From a virus (lineage: Duplodnaviria; Caudoviricetes): a stretch of 39,365 nt of DNA. Where the stretch lies: IMG/VR virus record IMGVR_UViG_3300048861_000032, positions 1 through 39,365 of that record; one strand, given 5' to 3'. Below, piece by piece: positions 6,928-38,240 of the stretch. The notes below the pieces were generated by a model. The model was not told where the DNA came from, did no database searches, and saw only the letters and a list, made by a program, of their open reading frames with translations. The position numbers and the translations under genes are program-made. Each line of letters starts with the position of its first letter. Within the stretch, counting starts at the first letter, position 1.

Positions 6928-8127
6928 ATGGCCAATACGATCCTGACCATCAACCAGATCACGCGCGAAGCCGTGCGTCTCTGGAAGAACTCGAACGCCT
7001 TCCTGCAGAACATCGATCGCCAGTATGACGACGAGTTCGCCAAGTCGGGCGCCAAGATCGGTTCGTCGCTGCGCATTCGCCTGCCCAACGACTTCACCGT
7101 TCGTACCGGCGCCGCCGCTTCGCCGCAGGATACGACCGAGCAGAACACCACGCTCACCGTGGCGACGCAGAAGGGCGTGGACGTTCAGTTCTCGTCCGCC
7201 GAGCGCGCGCTCTCGCTGGATGACTATTCCAAGCGCATCCTCGCCCCTGCAATCAACAACCTCGCCGGCGCGGTCGCGGCCGACATCATCTCGGGTGCAG
7301 AGGCGATCCCGAATTTCGTCAACAAGGTCGACGGCTCGGGCAACACCATCACCCCCGATGTCACGACCTGGCTCAATGCCGGCGCGCTCCTGGACTCGCT
7401 GTCTGCCCCCAAGGCTGACCGCAAGATCATGATCGATCCGTTCACGCAGGCGCGCACGGTGGGCTCGCTCGCCGGCCTGCTGAACCCGCAGGGCGCGCTG
7501 TCCAAGCAGTACGCAACCGGCTCGATGACCAGCGCGCTCGGCTACGACTGGATGATGGACCAGACGGTCGGAAAGCACACCACGGGTGCTTACGGCACGC
7601 TGGGCAACATCTCGGGCGCCGGCCAGACCGGCTCGACCATCACTGTGACGGCGCTGAACGGTCCGCTCAAGAAGGGTGACATCATCACCCTGCCGGGCTC
7701 CAACTCGGTCAACCGCATCACCAAGGGTGATAACGGCGTACTGGCGCAGTTCACGGTGACGGCGGACGTGGCGGCCTCGGCTACCTCGATCCCGATCTAT
7801 CCGGCGATCGTGGTTGCTCCCGCAGCCTATGCGACCGTGACAGCCTCGCCCACCAACGGGCAGCCGATCAAGGTCGTCAACAAGGCGTCCGAGGTCTACC
7901 GCAAGAACTTCGCGTTCCTGCCGCAGGCCGCTACGATGGTGACGGCGGATCTCGAACTGCCGCGCGGCGTGCACGAAGCTGCTCGGGAAACGTTCGACGG
8001 CACCAGCCTCCGCATGGTGACCGCCTACAACGTCTCGACCGACCAGTTCATCACCCGTCTCGATATTCTGTACGGATATCAGTGGGTGCGGCCGGAATGG
8101 GCCGTGGTCGTCGCGGACGCTCTCTGA
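6928..8127 (+). CDS. Major capsid protein (P22 gp5 family)
   Basis: 'MANTILTINQITREA', 'KIGSSLRIRLP', 'LSLDDYSKRILAPA' and 'TRLDILYG' motifs; GGAG RBS at 6918-6921. Confidence 0.95.
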   Translation: MANTILTINQITREAVRLWKNSNAFLQNIDRQYDDEFAKSGAKIGSSLRIRLPNDFTVRTGAAASPQDTTEQNTTLTVATQKGVDVQFSSAERALSLDDYSKRILAPAINNLAGAVAADIISGAEAIPNFVNKVDGSGNTITPDVTTWLNAGALLDSLSAPKADRKIMIDPFTQARTVGSLAGLLNPQGALSKQYATGSMTSALGYDWMMDQTVGKHTTGAYGTLGNISGAGQTGSTITVTALNGPLKKGDIITLPGSNSVNRITKGDNGVLAQFTVTADVAASATSIPIYPAIVVAPAAYATVTASPTNGQPIKVVNKASEVYRKNFAFLPQAATMVTADLELPRGVHEAARETFDGTSLRMVTAYNVSTDQFITRLDILYGYQWVRPEWAVVVADAL

Positions 8128-8133
8128 CCCCAT

Positions 8134-8166
8134 AGGGCGCGGCTTTCGGGTCGCGCCCTTCTTTCT
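8134..8166 (+). terminator. Rho-independent terminator after the coat gene
   Basis: AGGGCGCGGC-TTTCGG-GTCGCGCCCT hairpin followed by TCTTTCT. Confidence 0.8.
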
Positions 8167-8180
8167 GACGGAGGGCCAGC

Positions 8181-8462
8181 ATGGCAACCGACCGCTTCGC
8201 GAAATCGCAGGGGCCTTGGCCTACGGAATATCTGGATGACCCGTCGAGCTCGGCTGTCGCGGTCACGCCGTCCGATGCCACCCCGCTCACGGCAATCCCC
8301 AAGATGCTCTTCGTGGGCGTGTCGGGCGACATCACCATGACCCTGGCCCATGACAGCGCGAGCGTTCTGTTCAAGGCGGTTCCGGTGGGCATTCTCCGCG
8401 TTCGGCCGGGACAGGTCTTCGCCACGGGCACGACCGCGACCAACATCCTGGCGCTGTACTGA
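8181..8462 (+). CDS. Head spike base-like protein (resembles RcGTA Rcc01079 family)
   Basis: 'AVTPSD...LFVGVSGDITMTL...VLFKAVPVG-ILRVRPGQVFATGTTATNILAL' matches the family pattern as recalled. Confidence 0.7.
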   Translation: MATDRFAKSQGPWPTEYLDDPSSSAVAVTPSDATPLTAIPKMLFVGVSGDITMTLAHDSASVLFKAVPVGILRVRPGQVFATGTTATNILALY

Positions 8463-8466
8463 TCCC

Positions 8467-9189
8467 ATGACCCCGCGCGACATCATCAACCTCGCCGCGA
8501 AGAACGCTGGCGCGCTGGCGCAGGGGCAGACCCTGCCTCAGGGGCAGGCAAACGACATCTTCACGATGCTGAATGCGATGATCGGGCAATGGGCGGCCAA
8601 GCGCTGGCTGATCTATCACCTCGTCAATTCGACGCTGACGGCCACAGGGGCAGTTTCCTACACTGTTGGCCCCACGGGCGCCTTCAACGTCTCAGCGCGC
8701 CCCACGGGGCTTGAGGCTGCGTTTGTGAGCCAGAACCTTGGCACGCCCCAGCAGATCGACACGCCGCTTGAAATCCTCCAGTCCCGCGAGGACTATAACC
8801 GCATCGCGATGAAGCAGCTTGTCTCGCTGCCCTATTATATCTTCTACGACGCCGGCTTCCCGCTCGGCACGGTCTATCCGTGGCCCGCTCCCAATGCGGG
8901 GATCTATGGGCTGACCCTGACCTTCAAGATGCCGCTGACGGCGTTTACGGGCCTGTCGCAGGACATCAATCTTCCTGCCGAATATCAGGAAGCGCTGATC
9001 TACAATCTCGCGGCGCGGCTCCGTCCCTTCTTCCAGCTTGAGCCTGATGGGGCCATCATCGGTCTCGCCAAGGCCGCGCTGGGTACGATCCGAGCAGCAA
9101 ACACGCAGATTCCCCGGCTCCAGATGCCTATCGGGATGAGCCGTGGCGCTCGCTACAACGTGTACAGCGACCAAGGCGGCGGCTCATGA
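8467..9189 (+). CDS. Head-to-tail adaptor (P22 gp4-like)
   Basis: 'TPRDIINLA...LNAMIGQW...LPAEYQEALIYNLAARL' motifs and synteny. Confidence 0.8.
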   Translation: MTPRDIINLAAKNAGALAQGQTLPQGQANDIFTMLNAMIGQWAAKRWLIYHLVNSTLTATGAVSYTVGPTGAFNVSARPTGLEAAFVSQNLGTPQQIDTPLEILQSREDYNRIAMKQLVSLPYYIFYDAGFPLGTVYPWPAPNAGIYGLTLTFKMPLTAFTGLSQDINLPAEYQEALIYNLAARLRPFFQLEPDGAIIGLAKAALGTIRAANTQIPRLQMPIGMSRGARYNVYSDQGGGS

Positions 9190-24460: not shown

Positions 24461-24473
24461 AATCAAGCACTTA
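24461..24473 (+). promoter_or_regulatory. IHF binding site in attP
   Basis: AATCAAGCACTTA is an exact match to WATCAANNNNTTR. Confidence 0.7.
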
Positions 24474-25722
24474 GCTCCTTCGGCACGATTCGCAGTCCGG
24501 TGTCACTCCGGTGAAACGCCCCCGGTGCCAGCTTTTCGATGTCCGCGATAATGGCGTCCGTGACCGCCAAGGCGCGGCCCAACTGGCCGGTTTCGAACAG
24601 CGCGTAGACGTCGCTGGTGGACGGCTTCATGTGCCCGAGCATGCGCTGACCCTGAACCCAATGTTCCTCGCCCAGCCGCTTGCGGGCGATGGTCGCGATC
24701 GATCGCCGGATGAGCTTCATGCCCGTCTCGCGATCCCGCGGTAGCTCAAGGTGATCCAACATCGCCTCGAACGCCTTGCGCACCGAATCGACGGGCACGA
24801 ACCAACCCGAGGCCGCATCGAGCAACGCCGCACCGCGCTCACCGATCGGAACCGCGGGACGGAACTTGCGCGTCTGCGTGCGCCCGGCCGGGTTGAGGTC
24901 GAGCACGCGGGCATTCGACAGCCATTGCCGGCGCCCTATGTCCGTCGAGACATCATGCGCGGCGTCCGGTCGGCACCACGTGATGACGCTGATTTGCAGG
25001 AAGCGCAGGAGCGCGAGTCGGTCGGGCCGCTGCTTGCCCTTGGCGTTGGGCGTCATGGCATAGCGGAACATGGCCGCCAGCGTCTTGATGTCCGCCCGAT
25101 AGGTCGGGGTGCGGCTCACCTCTTCCGGCTTCTTCGCGCTGAACGCCGCGGCGAACAGGGTGTCCTTCTTGGCGTGAGCGTGATTGACCGCGGCGGCCAG
25201 CTGGCGGACGGACGCCTCTACTGTGCCAGCGCTCCGCGGCCGCTGTCTTCCTGCCTTGGGGTCTATGATCGGAACCTTGATCGCCCACTTGCGGAAGGCG
25301 CTGATCCAATCCGCGTCGACGTCCTCGCAGGCAGTCGCCAGCTTGTCTTCCGCAATGAGATAGGCGGAGACGTGCGCCAGCCGCGGCTTGATCGACGAAT
25401 AGGACGGTGAGTCCTCGCGCGCGATCAGATAGTTCGCGATGGCGTCGGCGAGCAGATGGCGATGACCGCGGTTGATGGTCTGCCCGCAGGTGGGGCAGAC
25501 GGCCTCGCCCCGCTCGCGCTTCTGGTAGAGCCGGTCTAGTTCGCGCTCGGCGTCCGCAATGTCCGCTGTAGCCGTCGACTTGCTTCGGAAACGGCCTGCG
25601 GACTGATCATACCAGAGGATCTGGAGGAATGGCGATCGGAGGCTTCCATCCCGCTTTCGATCCCAGGCGAGCTTATATTTGCCGCGGGAGTAGAGATCAG
25701 CGTCATCGATCGTTGCTGGCAT
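24463..25722 (-). CDS. int: Tyrosine recombinase / integrase
   Basis: Catalytic set 'TWCRP' (R), 'RKFRP' (K), 'KLIRRS' (H/KxxR), 'MLGH' and 'DVYA' (Y); adjacent to attP. Confidence 0.9.
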   Translation of the reverse strand: MPATIDDADLYSRGKYKLAWDRKRDGSLRSPFLQILWYDQSAGRFRSKSTATADIADAERELDRLYQKRERGEAVCPTCGQTINRGHRHLLADAIANYLIAREDSPSYSSIKPRLAHVSAYLIAEDKLATACEDVDADWISAFRKWAIKVPIIDPKAGRQRPRSAGTVEASVRQLAAAVNHAHAKKDTLFAAAFSAKKPEEVSRTPTYRADIKTLAAMFRYAMTPNAKGKQRPDRLALLRFLQISVITWCRPDAAHDVSTDIGRRQWLSNARVLDLNPAGRTQTRKFRPAVPIGERGAALLDAASGWFVPVDSVRKAFEAMLDHLELPRDRETGMKLIRRSIATIARKRLGEEHWVQGQRMLGHMKPSTSDVYALFETGQLGRALAVTDAIIADIEKLAPGAFHRSDTGLRIVPKELSA

Positions 25723-29429: not shown

Positions 29430-29633
29430 TCACCGACCCCCCAAAAACTGCGCCTTGCGCCTGTTATTCGCCTCCCAGATCAAATTCCCCAGATCCTCGC
29501 CAAGCTTGACGATCATCTTGCGGCGGTCGGCGGCATGCATTGGGCGCGTGCCTGCGGCACCAGGCTCTCGCCCTTCGGGCTGAGCCGCCTGCGGCGTCTC
29601 ATCGCTGCGCGCTTCGATCCTTCGCGCGATCAT
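29430..29633 (-). CDS. Hypothetical protein
   Basis: ATGA-coupled small ORF. Confidence 0.5.
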   Translation of the reverse strand: MIARRIEARSDETPQAAQPEGREPGAAGTRPMHAADRRKMIVKLGEDLGNLIWEANNRRKAQFLGGR

Positions 29634-30538
29634 GCTGGAACACCGAAGCCGGCCGCATTGCGATGGCCTCCGCCGCCGTATTTCTTGGCGATCTCGGACA
29701 CGTCCTGACGTTCATCTGCCGAACGCAGAGAATAGCCGCGCGAGTTGCCCTGATCGGAATAACAAGCAGAGAACGGGGCCTGTGGATAGCTGCCAAGCAA
29801 CGCGTGCCCGACCTCGGATGCGAACATGGGAGGACAGTTCACAGCGGGGACCCTGTGGCCACCTATATTGATGAACCGGGCCATGCTGACCAGCTCGCCC
29901 ACCTTCTGGTCATAGAAGCGCTGCATGGCATTCGCTTCGTCCATGATGCGCTGGCCGTCTCGCCCATTGTCGAGTTGCTGCGCAATCAGTTCCCAGCGCT
30001 GGAAATCGAACGGTTCAGCACGGAGCCACAGACCGAAGGGCTTGGTACGGGCATCCATGAAGCGCCAGAGGTCGCGATCTTCGATCAGGTCGATAAGGGT
30101 TGGCGCCTCGTTCTCGTGGCAGAACTCCCACGCCAGCTTGGCGCCAGACTTGGCCATGTCGAAGAGTGCCGCTATCGGCTGGCCAATATGATCGTCATTC
30201 CGACGGACGTCCTTCATGGGGTCGTCGTCGGCCCAGAACGAACCAGCCGCATCATCGATAGCCCAATCAGCAAGATCAGCCTGCGCTGACTTGTGGTGAT
30301 CGAGCACGATGATGGACCGCGCCTGCTTGCCCATCTCGCGCAGAACGTCGCGCTTATAGCTGAAGTCGACGATCAGGACGTGCAGGCCAGAGACGTCGGG
30401 AGCGGGCTCGCCATAGCTTGCCGCCTTGTAGCTGACGTCATTGCCCCACTTCATCCAACAGGCCCAAGCGGCTCCGAAGCCATCGGCGCAGTTGGCATGA
30501 TAAAGAACTATGTCAGGCTTATATTCGGCGTTCATCAT
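29630..30538 (-). CDS. DHH/DHHA1 family phosphoesterase
   Basis: 'YHANCADG', 'IVDFS', 'LDHH', 'DRDLW' and 'GGGGHRNAAGF' motifs. Confidence 0.92.
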   Translation of the reverse strand: MMNAEYKPDIVLYHANCADGFGAAWACWMKWGNDVSYKAASYGEPAPDVSGLHVLIVDFSYKRDVLREMGKQARSIIVLDHHKSAQADLADWAIDDAAGSFWADDDPMKDVRRNDDHIGQPIAALFDMAKSGAKLAWEFCHENEAPTLIDLIEDRDLWRFMDARTKPFGLWLRAEPFDFQRWELIAQQLDNGRDGQRIMDEANAMQRFYDQKVGELVSMARFINIGGHRVPAVNCPPMFASEVGHALLGSYPQAPFSACYSDQGNSRGYSLRSADERQDVSEIAKKYGGGGHRNAAGFGVPA

Positions 30539-30933
30539 GCCGCTTTCTCCTGTGCTTGGTCGCTCCACTCGACGCCATGCTCGGCACCGAAGGCGTAAAT
30601 CGCTTCGATTAGATCGCTGAACTCGGCCTTGTTCAGGCGGCTCGACTTGTATCCGAGTGGCACGACGCCAGTTCCGTCTAGGCTCGGCTCGAACGTGCAC
30701 TTGAAGCCTGCCGACGCCATAAAAAGCGCCTTCCAAACATCTGTGCTGTGGACCCGCCCACCCGGCTTAGCCCGCGCGATGTCGGACAACATTGCGTACA
30801 TCTTGGCGTTCTGGTCGCTCGTACGATTTGCCTCGCGGACGTTCAGCACGGCACCACGCGGCGCACGCTCGATCAGCGTGTGCGCGAGGCGGCGCTGATA
30901 GTCCGAGCCGAGCACGACGGTTTGGCCGGTCAT
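30535..30933 (-). CDS. ninB: NinB/Orf family recombination protein
   Basis: 'RTSDQNAKMYAMLSDIA...WKALF...SSRLNKAEFSDLIEAIYAFGAEHGVEWS'. Confidence 0.88.
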   Translation of the reverse strand: MTGQTVVLGSDYQRRLAHTLIERAPRGAVLNVREANRTSDQNAKMYAMLSDIARAKPGGRVHSTDVWKALFMASAGFKCTFEPSLDGTGVVPLGYKSSRLNKAEFSDLIEAIYAFGAEHGVEWSDQAQEKAA

Positions 30934-31452: not shown

Positions 31453-32342
31453 CAGCCGGCGTCCAGAATGTTCGGGACGTAGGGAGCGTCGCCATCTTCG
31501 GTGCAGCGGATGCGCGCTGCGTCAATCTCGGCACGCAGGCCGATGAAGTCCGCACCGTCACCATTCCATGCGTTCGGCAGTTCCATCTCGAACTGCGCAA
31601 GAACCTCATGCTCGCTGGCAAGGTAGGCCTCCAGCATGTCGGTGTCGGCGCAGCCGTTCAGTTCGCGGACGATCTCGCCGTATTTGAGGCGGGCTTCTGC
31701 GCGGGTCTTCATCGGTCCAGTGAGCGGTTCGCGCTTCTTGGTGGACGTGCGCTCGACGTGCTCGACCTGCTCTGGCTCGGCGGGCCGCTCCTGCGGCTCC
31801 TGACGGGCCTGCGAGGGCGCACGGTCCTGCGCCACCATGTCCTGAACCTCACCCGTCTCGTAGAGGCCGCTGGTGGCACCTGGGAACACCGTACGGACGC
31901 CCTCCGAGATGACCCGGCTGCGGAGCATCTGGCGGGGGTATTTCTTGTGCATGTCGTTGCCGCCAAGCTGGGCTTGCTGGACGCGCTTCTTGTCCCACGT
32001 GATCCGCGCCGATCCGCCAGACGGATGCGAGAACGTGGCATCGACGCACTCATCGTCGAGCTGGTGCCATTCGATCTTTCCGCCGTTGGAGAGGAAGTCG
32101 CGCAGCATCGCGTCGGCCTTCTTGGCCGGCTTGCCCTTGATGATGTGGTAGTCGCGGAACACCACGGCCGGATGCTGCCCCTCTGCCTGCGCCAACAGGC
32201 ACAGCGTCAGAACAGCATTGGGGTCTGTCGATCCGAACAGGCCGCCCTTGGCGATGGCAAGTGCCACGCGCTCAATGTCGGACATTGAGAAGGCGGGGAC
32301 TACCGGAGCATGACGCTCGAACGGGACAAGTGCAGTTGCCAT
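31452..32342 (-). CDS. Single-strand annealing protein (RecT/Redbeta-like)
   Basis: 'YHIIKGKPAKKADAM...KKYPRQMLRSRVISEGVRTVFPG...GLYETGEV'; upstream of ninB. Confidence 0.75.
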   Translation of the reverse strand: MATALVPFERHAPVVPAFSMSDIERVALAIAKGGLFGSTDPNAVLTLCLLAQAEGQHPAVVFRDYHIIKGKPAKKADAMLRDFLSNGGKIEWHQLDDECVDATFSHPSGGSARITWDKKRVQQAQLGGNDMHKKYPRQMLRSRVISEGVRTVFPGATSGLYETGEVQDMVAQDRAPSQARQEPQERPAEPEQVEHVERTSTKKREPLTGPMKTRAEARLKYGEIVRELNGCADTDMLEAYLASEHEVLAQFEMELPNAWNGDGADFIGLRAEIDAARIRCTEDGDAPYVPNILDAG

Positions 32343-34776: not shown

Positions 34777-34947
34777 TCAGTAGCCCAGAGCGATGCGCGC
34801 TTCGGCCATCGACGTGACGTGCTCGATCAGCATGCCACGCTCTTGGGTGCGACGGTTCCACGTAGGAATCCAAATCGCTACCGCATCGCCGGCCATCTCA
34901 GCTTCAAACCCGTGGGCCTGAGCGAACCTGATGATTGTCTGGCTCAT
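34777..34947 (-). CDS. Hypothetical protein, first gene of the leftward early operon
   Basis: GGGGAG RBS; just downstream of pL. Confidence 0.6.
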   Translation of the reverse strand: MSQTIIRFAQAHGFEAEMAGDAVAIWIPTWNRRTQERGMLIEHVTSMAEARIALGY

Positions 34948-34986
34948 CGCCTGCTCCCCATGCGGCACGATGCCGCTGTGGGGAGG

Positions 34987-35027
34987 ACCATACACCAGAC
35001 GTTTATAGTGTCAACAGGGCGTGTGTA
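34987..35027 (-). promoter_or_regulatory. Leftward early promoter pL with two operator-like sites
   Basis: TTGACA (35014-35009), 16-nt spacer, TATGGT (34992-34987). Operators TACACC-AGA-CGTTTA (34991-35005) and AACAGG-GCG-TGTGTA (35013-35027). Confidence 0.75.
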
Positions 35028-35083
35028 TTTTTTAGCGTCGTGTTAAGCCCTCTTCCCTAGTAGGAAATGAGGTGCTTTGAGAG

Positions 35084-35098
35084 GTTCATGTTTTGTTC
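35084..35098 (+). promoter_or_regulatory. Alphaproteobacterial LexA (SOS) box
   Basis: GTTC-ATGTTTT-GTTC is an exact GTTC-N7-GTTC, intergenic and just downstream of a TTGAGA -35-like hexamer. Confidence 0.75.
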
Positions 35099-35130
35099 TT
35101 TTCGAGAGCATCGCTTTGGAGTGGGCTGAG

Positions 35131-35364
35131 ATGCACATCGACGACATTGTTAGCTTGGCTTTAGACCGCCTCGTGATTGCCAAACGGTTTGGGCCGCCAG
35201 CCGAGAGCGCAGAGCAGGGTCGCCTTCGTCAGGTAAGGCTGCAGCAATTCGCCCAGCTTCAATCACGCCTTCTGCAATCGCAGCGGACATCTCAGGCGCT
35301 AGTCCAGCCAACTCCAGAAACCGGACTATTATCGGACTATAGTCCACCGGGCCTTGCTCACTGA
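35131..35364 (+). CDS. Putative SOS-inducible small protein (antirepressor candidate), antisense to cI
   Basis: GGAG RBS at 35118-35121, ATG 35131, 32 nt downstream of the LexA box; 77 aa. Confidence 0.4.
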   Translation: MHIDDIVSLALDRLVIAKRFGPPAESAEQGRLRQVRLQQFAQLQSRLLQSQRTSQALVQPTPETGLLSDYSPPGLAH

Positions 35365-35596
35365 AGCCGACGATATAGTCGATCGACACACCCAGCGCCT
35401 TAGCGATCCGAGCCAAGGTTTCGACGTCAGGCACGTTGCCCTTGCGGTTCAGGTAGTTGTTCAGGCGCTGCGGGGTGATCCCTACACGCCGAGCCAGCTC
35501 GGCCTGGGTGAGAGGTGAATTGGACACCAATTCGCGGAGGCGCACGGACACGTCTATCATCAGCTCGCTAGGCAATGGATCGTCGTGTATTTCCAT
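35150..35596 (-). CDS. cI: Prophage repressor (XRE-family HTH, no S24 peptidase domain)
   Basis: 'LTQAELARRVGITPQRLNNYL...PDVETLARIAKALGVSIDYIVG'; divergent from cro; alternative start at 35560. Confidence 0.85.
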   Translation of the reverse strand: MEIHDDPLPSELMIDVSVRLRELVSNSPLTQAELARRVGITPQRLNNYLNRKGNVPDVETLARIAKALGVSIDYIVGFSEQGPVDYSPIIVRFLELAGLAPEMSAAIAEGVIEAGRIAAALPDEGDPALRSRLAAQTVWQSRGGLKPS

Positions 35597-35609: not shown

Positions 35610-35638
35610 TTGCGTTGCGTACACCGCTGGTGTATGCC
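35610..35638 (+). promoter_or_regulatory. Rightward early promoter pR with a perfect palindromic operator
   Basis: TTGCGT (35610-15), 17 nt, TATGCC (35633-38); operator TACACC-GCT-GGTGTA at 35620-35634. Confidence 0.7.
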
Positions 35639-35644
35639 GAAACC

Positions 35645-35902
35645 ATGCCAAGCAAGAGAAACCCCGATAGCGCGTTTATCGATGCCATTGAACCTGCCAT
35701 TGTGGGTAGTCAGTTTGGCCTGACCCCGCAACGACTCCACATGTGGAGAGTCCGCGGCGTTCCTGCGAATTATCGCGCGGCCGTTGCTCAACTTGCGCTC
35801 ATGCGCGGTGTTGCGGTCCCTGAGTGGTTTCTAAAGCCCCGCCCGCCGAAGCGGAGCAAGGCGCGCAGTCGCGCCAAGCCGGCCCAGCAGGTGGCGGCAT
35901 GA
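35645..35902 (+). CDS. cro: Cro-like repressor
   Basis: 'VGSQFGLTPQRLHMWRVRGVP' Cro-type HTH; divergent from cI; ends in QVAA. Confidence 0.75.
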   Translation: MPSKRNPDSAFIDAIEPAIVGSQFGLTPQRLHMWRVRGVPANYRAAVAQLALMRGVAVPEWFLKPRPPKRSKARSRAKPAQQVAA

Positions 35903-36303
35903 AATATACAGTCTACGGCATCCGCCTGCGCGGAGAAGCGGAAATCCGGTACGTCGGGCAGACTGCCCGCACCCTTGAGGCGCGACTGCTCAGCCATGTC
36001 CGCGAGACATTCGGCGGAAGCCGCCCCAGGCCGATGACGTTGTGGTTGCACGATAACCTTGACCGCGTTGAGATATTCCCGGTCGGTGAGGCCCAGTCGC
36101 GAGAAGAGGCGAAACGCTTCGAGCGCGCGATCATCACCCTCTGCCTGTCGCTCAACCACAGGCTGTTCAACACTCATTGTGTCCCACCAGAGCGCAGGAT
36201 CTTGCGCAACCCCTTCCTCGCGCCGGGCACCCCCCTCCCGAGTGGCGCGCAGGCCGATGGCCCGGCGGTATCCCCCCGCCGCCGGGCCGGAGGGCCCCTC
36301 TAG
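35899..36303 (+). CDS. GIY-YIG nuclease domain protein
   Basis: 'TVYGIR...IRYVGQT...RLLSH...E...LFN' motif set. Confidence 0.8.
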   Translation: MKYTVYGIRLRGEAEIRYVGQTARTLEARLLSHVRETFGGSRPRPMTLWLHDNLDRVEIFPVGEAQSREEAKRFERAIITLCLSLNHRLFNTHCVPPERRILRNPFLAPGTPLPSGAQADGPAVSPRRRAGGPL

Positions 36304-37798: not shown

Positions 37799-38007
37799 TG
37801 TTCGCCACCATCGCAACCGTCGAAGCCGTAGCCGCGACCGCCGCTTTTGCCGCGCTCGCCGTCCGCTACCAGGAGACGCGGACCGCGCTGCGCCGTGCCA
37901 CGTGGCGCGCCGATACACTCGCTCATCTCGAAGAGCGCCGCATTGAGCGCGCCAAGCGCCGCGCCGGCATCCCCCAAAATCGCAATGAGAAGGGTCAATT
38001 CGCATGA
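37798..38007 (+). CDS. Hypothetical protein
   Basis: GGAGG RBS; C-terminal 'RNEKGQF'. Confidence 0.55.
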   Translation: MFATIATVEAVAATAAFAALAVRYQETRTALRRATWRADTLAHLEERRIERAKRRAGIPQNRNEKGQFA

Positions 38008-38240
38008 CCGACAATGTATCAGCGGCTCAGCTTCGCCAGTTCGTCGAGCGCATCGAGCGCCTGACAGAAGAGCGCAAGGGCATCTCGTCCGACATCACCG
38101 ATGTCTATACTGAGGCCTCATCGCAGGGCTTCGACAAGCCCGCGATCCGCGAGATCATCAAGCAGCGCGCCATGGACGCTCAGAAGCGTCAGGAGCGTCA
38201 GGCGATCGTCGAGACCTATCAGCTTGCGCTTGGGCTCTGA
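38004..38240 (+). CDS. gapR: GapR-like DNA-binding protein (DUF2312/UPF0335)
   Basis: 'QLRQFVERIERLTEERKGISSDITDVYTEASSQGFDKPAIREIIKQR...ETYQLALG'. Confidence 0.92.
   Translation: MTDNVSAAQLRQFVERIERLTEERKGISSDITDVYTEASSQGFDKPAIREIIKQRAMDAQKRQERQAIVETYQLALGL

Follow-up and report, generated by a model that had tools for sequence, protein, structure and literature searches.

The repressor gene cI of a likely temperate phage carries, on the strand opposite its C-terminal domain, a second reading frame that is preceded by a LexA-type box and conserved among related loci, and we consider it probable that this frame encodes a LexA-controlled protein antirepressor, whose binding, induction and target we infer from the organization of the locus, from its conservation and from known systems. 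The window (the whole stretch of 39,365 nucleotides that was analysed) represents a virus record of 39 kb at 87% completeness. It carries P22-like genes for portal, terminase, head and lysis functions, and its control region is lambdoid, composed of a leftward operon, cI, a cro-like gene and a CII-like gene (Table 1).

Table 1. Features of the window considered in this work, in order of position.
Feature	Position	Strand	Description
Integrase-like gene	24463..25722	-	likely divergent tyrosine integrase, 419 aa; Phage_int_SAM_5 E 0.002, below cut-off
DHH/DHHA1-type phosphoesterase-like gene	29630..30736	-	leftward operon; PF02272 E 9e-5, below cut-off
Second perfect GTTC-N7-GTTC	31590..31604	-	inside RecT-like gene; GC-rich spacer
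First gene of leftward early operon	34777..34968	-	no family assigned
Leftward early promoter	34987..35014	-	TTGACA-16-TATGGT, PL-like; from promoter scan
OL1	34991..35005		operator-like; between -35 and -10 of leftward promoter; matches the 15-bp palindrome at OR
OL2	35013..35027		operator-like; palindrome match
Near-palindrome	35049..35072		with TTYCCTA element; could be a promoter element, a protein site or a hairpin of the cI mRNA
LexA-box motif GTTC-N7-GTTC	35084..35098	+	32 nt 5' of antisense ATG
GGAG	35118..35121	+	RBS-like motif, 9 nt 5' of antisense ATG
Antisense ORF	35131..35364	+	77 aa/codons; ATG at 35131, stop ends at 35364; candidate antirepressor
Overlap of cI and antisense ORF	35150..35364		215 of 234 nt; 92% of ORF inside cI
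cI	35150..35596	-	148-aa repressor; XRE HTH and three-helix C-terminal domain
OR	35620..35634		15-bp palindromic operator-like site between cI and cro
cro-like gene	35645..35902	+	divergent from cI; opens rightward operon; phrog_8008 DNA-binding protein, E 1e-4
GIY-YIG-like gene	35899..36303	+	E 1e-4, at Pfam cut-off
GapR-like gene	38004..38240	+	DNA-binding protein; PF10073 E 8e-28; rightward early operon

The integrase-like product is 64% identical to that of a gene annotated as hypothetical in L277, a prophage of Sphingomonas parapaucimobilis (NZ_CP155750.1), and shows by eye a C-terminal R..LGH..Y pattern that we take to be the tyrosine integrase motif. PF00589, PHROGs and a PDB sequence search gave no match for this product, and a tyrosine integrase passes the Pfam cut-off in all four related virus records searched. 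The host is likely a Sphingomonas-type alphaproteobacterium, since the window contains a GapR-like gene and this Sphingomonas integrase-like gene, and since a relative of its CI (P0015, 56% identity) is named from Ca. Sphingomonas colombiensis. The GapR-like gene is also present in L277 (as DUF2312). The GIY-YIG-like gene, an unusual insert, directly follows cro and precedes the CII-like gene.

Lambda-type CI repressors carry a C-terminal S24 peptidase domain that is beta-rich and has a Ser-Lys dyad. The CI of the window differs from such self-cleaving repressors in that its C-terminal part, of ~70 residues, is predicted to be all-helical. The preliminary description of this DNA had proposed a repressor of at most 148 aa with an XRE HTH and without S24, and the Pfam scan agrees with it, giving HTH families only, at about residues 18-77; the XRE HTH is placed at about residues 16-76. 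The AlphaFold model (mean pLDDT 89.9) is entirely helical, without strands, and its C-terminal helices span residues 86-96, 101-120 and 127-141; look-alikes of this domain were weak and helical only. The earlier reading would have been refuted by a cryptic RecA-cleavage domain in CI, and none was found by Pfam, in the AlphaFold model or in the relatives, the gene ending at residue 148; the same Pfam scan detects S24 in the repressor of L277. A profile search for full-length relatives provided 60 proteins for alignment, and none of the 25 Pfam families examined, of 28 matched by these proteins, is S24. Among annotated phages and plasmids no relatives were found, the matches being HTH-only. Many of the CI relatives in databases (P0003, P0008, P0015, P0016 and others) are annotated with 50-110 surplus residues at the N-terminus, and this extension corresponds to the reverse strand of cro, which is open in the window too (35791-35597).

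Loci with DNA were collected by CI sequence only, the box and the antisense ORF having played no part in their selection. Screening of 153 loci and the window with an HMM of the C-terminal domain retained 16 ORFs, which correspond to eight distinct loci; L157 was added from a later search (one new locus of four) and one further search added none of four, giving nine distinct loci in total. Other pattern matches (L001, L004-L007 and L011-L015 among them) were dropped as HTH-only or chance. A genome scan returned two loci, neither of which passed the C-terminal HMM, and a blind sample of 121 genomes from the class of G002 gave no matches and is uninformative. Of two sequencing runs considered, one may be the origin of the DNA itself and the other covers just two short pieces away from the module; neither was taken as evidence. 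Pairwise CI identity across the nine loci is 34-57%, with the exception of L008 and L009 (97%). Since the nine-taxon tree is mostly without resolution (one of six inner branches supported), we claim no order of events.

The box, the GGAG motif, the 77-codon antisense ORF and the 215-nt overlap of the preliminary description were all recovered where it had placed them, and the remaining two antisense frames are broken by stops within the overlap. The same antisense frame is open in all nine loci, over 65-83 codons, with a start codon 13-34 nt past the cI stop and an end at the same codon in eight of them (L157 stops 12 codons early), and purine-rich stretches lie 5' of the matching starts in the relatives. 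Conservation of box, start and open frame in related phages, which had been suggested as a check on the proposal, thus proved positive in 9/9 loci, the box being perfect in seven and carrying one mismatch in the other two (L002 and L017).

In the available text of the sources, GTTCN7GTTC is the published LexA motif of Caulobacter (PMC12700426), and GTTC/GAAC motif groups are described for LexA (PMC6473078). When the window is judged alone, the box is weak evidence and within chance, with two perfect boxes against 0.77 expected and 19 of 100 shuffles reaching two. The second of these boxes was treated as a chance match, and further perfect boxes elsewhere in the five records searched have GC-rich spacers and occur in near the chance number. 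Across the relatives, the perfect box lies no more than 155 nt from the cI stop in the seven loci that have it, with differing spacers, and base-shuffled flanks give a probability of 0.002-0.005 per locus; judged by these counts, its recurrence is not due to chance. The box stands about 20-40 nt 5' of the antisense start in 8/9 loci. L016, where the box is further out, has a second site with one mismatch, and its two LexA-type boxes are in mixed orientation, 95 and 137 nt past the cI stop, while the two boxes of L157 are in opposite orientation, at 56 and 132 nt.

A promoter-like arrangement facing into cI (T[TA]TCCT-17/18-TAnnnT) was found in five of the nine loci, with the box on or just past the -10. 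The sigma-70 scan of the window called only the leftward promoter and no promoter on the + strand; the upstream element of the window is spaced as in L008 and L009, but its -10-like hexamer is poor, and L002 likewise shows no recognisable antisense -10. Besides, a T[TA]TCCTAC element precedes the box by 8-25 nt in the window, L008, L009, L010, L017, L002 and L157; it fits a -35 in five loci and is part of a palindrome in only three of the seven (the window, L008 and L010). The palindrome of the window was rejected as a terminator, for it folds as a hairpin but has no U-run. A scan for the TTTCCTACA element together with a box returned 115 loci, none with a CI-like gene, and these were discarded as chance matches.

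On the other side, TTGAC followed by an operator-like site occurs at the equivalent place in eight of the nine loci, L002 being the exception, and an OR-like site is found 469-487 nt before the cI stop in all nine. In L002, the first 300 nt or so 3' of cI are devoid of both a leftward promoter and an operator-like site, and this region seems to contain an insertion. CTXphi is known for co-repression by RstR plus LexA, and it might be supposed that LexA and CI jointly repress the leftward early promoter here, the antisense ORF being outside the switch. We regard this as very unlikely. The distance from the end of the box to the leftward -35 is indeed 69-70 nt in the window, L008, L009 and L016, and the window is without a clear + strand -10, but the distance varies between 84 and 146 nt in L017, L019, L010 and L157, and in L002 a promoter of this kind is missing from the vicinity, whereas the spacing of the box to the antisense start is kept in nearly all loci. 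Moreover, co-repression leaves both the selection on the antisense frame and the release of the rightward operon unexplained.

The coding constraint on the antisense frame suggests that it is translated. In this geometry the wobble base of cI falls on the second position of the antisense codon and stops arise often, and in the control the frame was open in only six of 76 windows of 68 codons from the other large genes of the phage. Over the last 68 cI codons, the eight loci of the first screen contain a single stop, which is the L010 ORF's own end, against 13.1 expected, and their HTH part contains 33 against 25.1. With a composition-matched null in which the observed codons of eight loci (L009 was left out as a near-duplicate) were redealt within each region, the last 40 columns gave an antisense BLOSUM similarity of 0.88 against -0.01+-0.09 (z 10.1, 0/1000) and no stops against 8.1+-2.0, while z was 1.2 for the HTH control and 1.3 for the antisense tail (last third). 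A null based on phage codon usage gave, for the same 40 columns, z 4.4 for antisense similarity and z 10.6 for hydrophobic content, with z 0.3 in the HTH part; a null with uniform codon usage was uninformative, as all regions exceed it. These loci share ancestry, and multiplied probabilities overstate their independence.

Codon choice within cI points in the same direction. Codons ending in A, which make up 8% phage-wide, rise to 27% in this region and are invariant at positions that encode Leu on the antisense strand; at one cI Glu opposite an antisense Leu, GAA is used in 9/9 loci, its phage-wide share being 0.29. The antisense codons outside cI keep an acidic-then-hydrophobic pattern in eight of the nine loci. 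In the last 58 residues of the 60 CI relatives known as proteins only, the stop-forcing dipeptide F-[IMTNK] is absent against 3.7 expected (HTH part, 12 against 10.0), and the stop-favoring I-[IMTNK] occurs once against 15.3 expected, a dipeptide that is also somewhat depleted in the HTH part (34 against 52.5); this depletion suggests that the overlap is family-wide. Altogether, these comparisons indicate that the antisense frame is conserved and under amino-acid-level selection over the last 40 cI codons, and that the last third of the antisense protein carries no signal of such selection.

These results bear on two other explanations. That box and ORF arose by chance, as a side effect of CI conservation and codon bias, is barely credible: the box of the window is within chance when taken alone and the ORF has no database homologue, but this frame is usually interrupted by stops, cI follows the null in its HTH half and the boxes recur with different spacers. 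The preliminary description had left undecided whether an encoded protein, antisense RNA or transcriptional collision inactivates cI. Of these options, an encoded protein is now favored, since the conservation of the antisense amino acids exceeds the constraint imposed by CI. Silencing of cI by the convergent transcript itself, through antisense pairing or polymerase collision, with a secondary ORF that serves, for example, to stabilise the transcript via translation, is in our opinion improbable. A promoter does face cI, the transcript would be complementary to at least 215 nt of cI mRNA and an open frame could by itself be enough for coupling to translation; against this, selection acts on specific amino acids and goes beyond the absence of stops, blocked synthesis would presumably clear existing repressor by dilution only, and, in the available text on AimX of Bacillus phages, RNA effects were tested and were small (bioRxiv 10.1101/2025.11.23.689978).

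The antisense ORF likely encodes a small two-helix protein, with helices predicted at residues 3-19 and 27-56 (pLDDT about 76-85) and followed by a variable tail of low confidence. No homologue was found in Pfam, PHROGs, protein, profile, language-model-feature and BFVD fold searches, in which short helical proteins are easily missed, and the family had no match among 5.8 billion called proteins. Mimicry of the CI C-terminal domain by the antisense protein was not detected either (profile comparison probability 0.2%).

We propose that CI, formed by the HTH and a helical C-terminal domain without a self-cleaving peptidase, would keep both early promoters off by binding OR, OL1 and OL2, as their positions and palindromes suggest. 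Because this CI cannot cleave itself, induction needs a trigger. In the SOS response, RecA filaments trigger LexA cleavage after DNA damage. LexA, presumably bound to the box motif, would cover the promoter that faces the 3' end of cI, and its cleavage upon damage would allow the antisense protein of 65-83 aa, for which selection is observed and translation is presumed, to be made. By analogy with AimX/AimC and SinI/SinR, the antisense helices would then bind the C-terminal domain of CI, block oligomerisation and free the operators, and the convergent transcript may add to this by interfering in cis to some degree. The two antisense helices and the final helices of CI are encoded by the same base pairs, and the pair is therefore inseparable by recombination. 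A broader form of this proposal, which we advance tentatively and hold to be possible rather than probable, is that both strands encode one interface, the antisense helices binding the very domain whose codons they share, so that each mutation alters both sides, and that this is a family-wide induction mechanism of Sphingomonas-type phages, probably overprinted from a LexA-controlled convergent promoter after loss of the CI peptidase and invisible to gene callers.

The antisense ORF could also encode a real SOS-induced protein with a target other than CI, such as a host factor, repair or exclusion, CI being inactivated otherwise, for example by a host protease or a distant antirepressor. The prophage L277 is relevant here, as its region 7342-8562 encodes an S24-bearing CI and, convergent with it, a 140-aa HIRAN protein. 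The HIRAN gene shares 47 nt with cI, and a perfect LexA-type box lies 42 nt upstream of it. The window resembles L277 in the lambdoid layout, in the integrase-like gene and in that a perfect LexA-type box precedes a gene which converges on cI and overlaps it, and differs from L277 in that the L277 CI carries S24 and in the extent of the overlap, which in L277 is only those 47 nt. L277 thus indicates that a LexA-boxed convergent slot exists without need of an antirepressor and can hold apparently unrelated SOS cargo, here beside a cleavable CI; no report on an SOS-controlled HIRAN gene in an immunity region was found in the literature searched. The additional perfect boxes in the five records and the unlikeness of the antisense protein to known antirepressors are also compatible with cargo. 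However, the CI of the window needs some inducer, only the cI-linked box is found repeatedly in a constant position, the others having GC-rich spacers and occurring in near the chance number, and cargo would have no reason to remain within the part of cI for the C-terminal domain while CI itself diverges to 34-57% identity. Overall, a target other than CI appears unlikely, and a LexA-controlled promoter pointing into cI, as in L277, may be the origin of the overprinted gene.

The logic of an antirepressor under LexA control is already known. According to the available text of the sources, such antirepressors act on the non-cleavable repressors of coliphage 186 (Tum), N15 (AntC) and the Gifsy phages (GfoA/GftA) (PMC3121763) and are also covered by a general statement (PMC9437464). 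The window shares with these systems, as far as they are described there, a non-cleavable repressor and a small gene with a LexA-box motif at its promoter; in the Gifsy phages, the genes of the antirepressors are not part of the immunity region, and non-cognate repressors can be among their targets (PMC3121763), whereas the candidate antirepressor gene of the window is nested inside cI. Searches found no homology of the antisense protein to Tum, AntC or the Gifsy antirepressors.

The closest parallel in organization is the AimX-AimC-AimL system of extended arbitrium phages (phi106, phiW23, BMBtp14). As described in the accessible portions of a recent preprint (bioRxiv 10.1101/2025.11.23.689978), AimX of Bacillus phage phi106 is a LexA-boxed 29-aa ORF, convergent with aimC and overlapping it by 30 bp, which acts as a protein that binds AimC and prevents its oligomerisation and was modelled on the AimC C-terminal domain; other AimX ORFs are said there to overlap aimC "sometimes". 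On that account, both systems combine a short RecA-unresponsive XRE repressor with a helical C-terminal domain, a convergent small helical ORF and a divergent cro-like gene, and the window resembles the phi106 family in having a LexA site, here as a motif only, just 5' of the small ORF. In contrast to extended arbitrium, the window is without aimR/aimP and has upstream an oppositely oriented early operon with its promoter, and it is distinguished from the Bacillus AimX systems, as described in the same text, by the alphaproteobacterial LexA motif and by an overlap that covers almost the whole ORF. In the structural comparison, AimC (9iaq) ranks first for the N-terminal domain of CI, level with other XRE domains (Z 12.1, rmsd 1.7, 71 aligned), and the match spans residues 13-84 of the CI model only; no match in sequence or in the C-terminal domain was found between the window pair and AimX/AimC. 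The earlier view that the arrangement is unlike the textbook cases is thus sustained for the near-complete nesting and not for the rest, since AimX and aimC are already LexA-boxed, convergent and overlapping.

Overlapping genes have been noted elsewhere in phages. In Rhizobium phage 16-3, immX is reportedly a case of overlapping genes in a phage immunity region. Overlapping coding on opposite strands is described for olg1/gene 10 of Pseudomonas phage Fc02 (PMC9936078); in the accessible accounts, both 16-3 immX and Fc02 are linked to repressor or exclusion functions, and neither is presented as a pair of repressor and antirepressor or as being under LexA control; the available parts of two further papers that were checked describe other things (PMC10460002; PMC12908700). 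The literature searched, largely without subscription papers, contained neither an antirepressor almost wholly antisense-nested in its repressor gene nor this phage family. The near-complete dual coding is the new part of the present finding.

Antisense overlaps of such depth in bacteria and phages are debated with regard to their functionality. Here, selection is measurable against an internal control, namely the HTH part of cI. If the binding surface is the shared segment, the pair would be a small, naturally occurring example in which to study how genes arise by overprinting and how two partners co-evolve under one sequence. If the proposed switch is true, repressor and antirepressor would be inseparable and the latter probably specific, unlike the cross-acting Gifsy antirepressors. 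An antirepressor that seems to be absent can lie antisense to cI and so be overlooked in annotation, and the arrangement offers a possible answer to the question of how DNA damage is sensed by alphaproteobacterial prophages whose repressors are non-cleavable.
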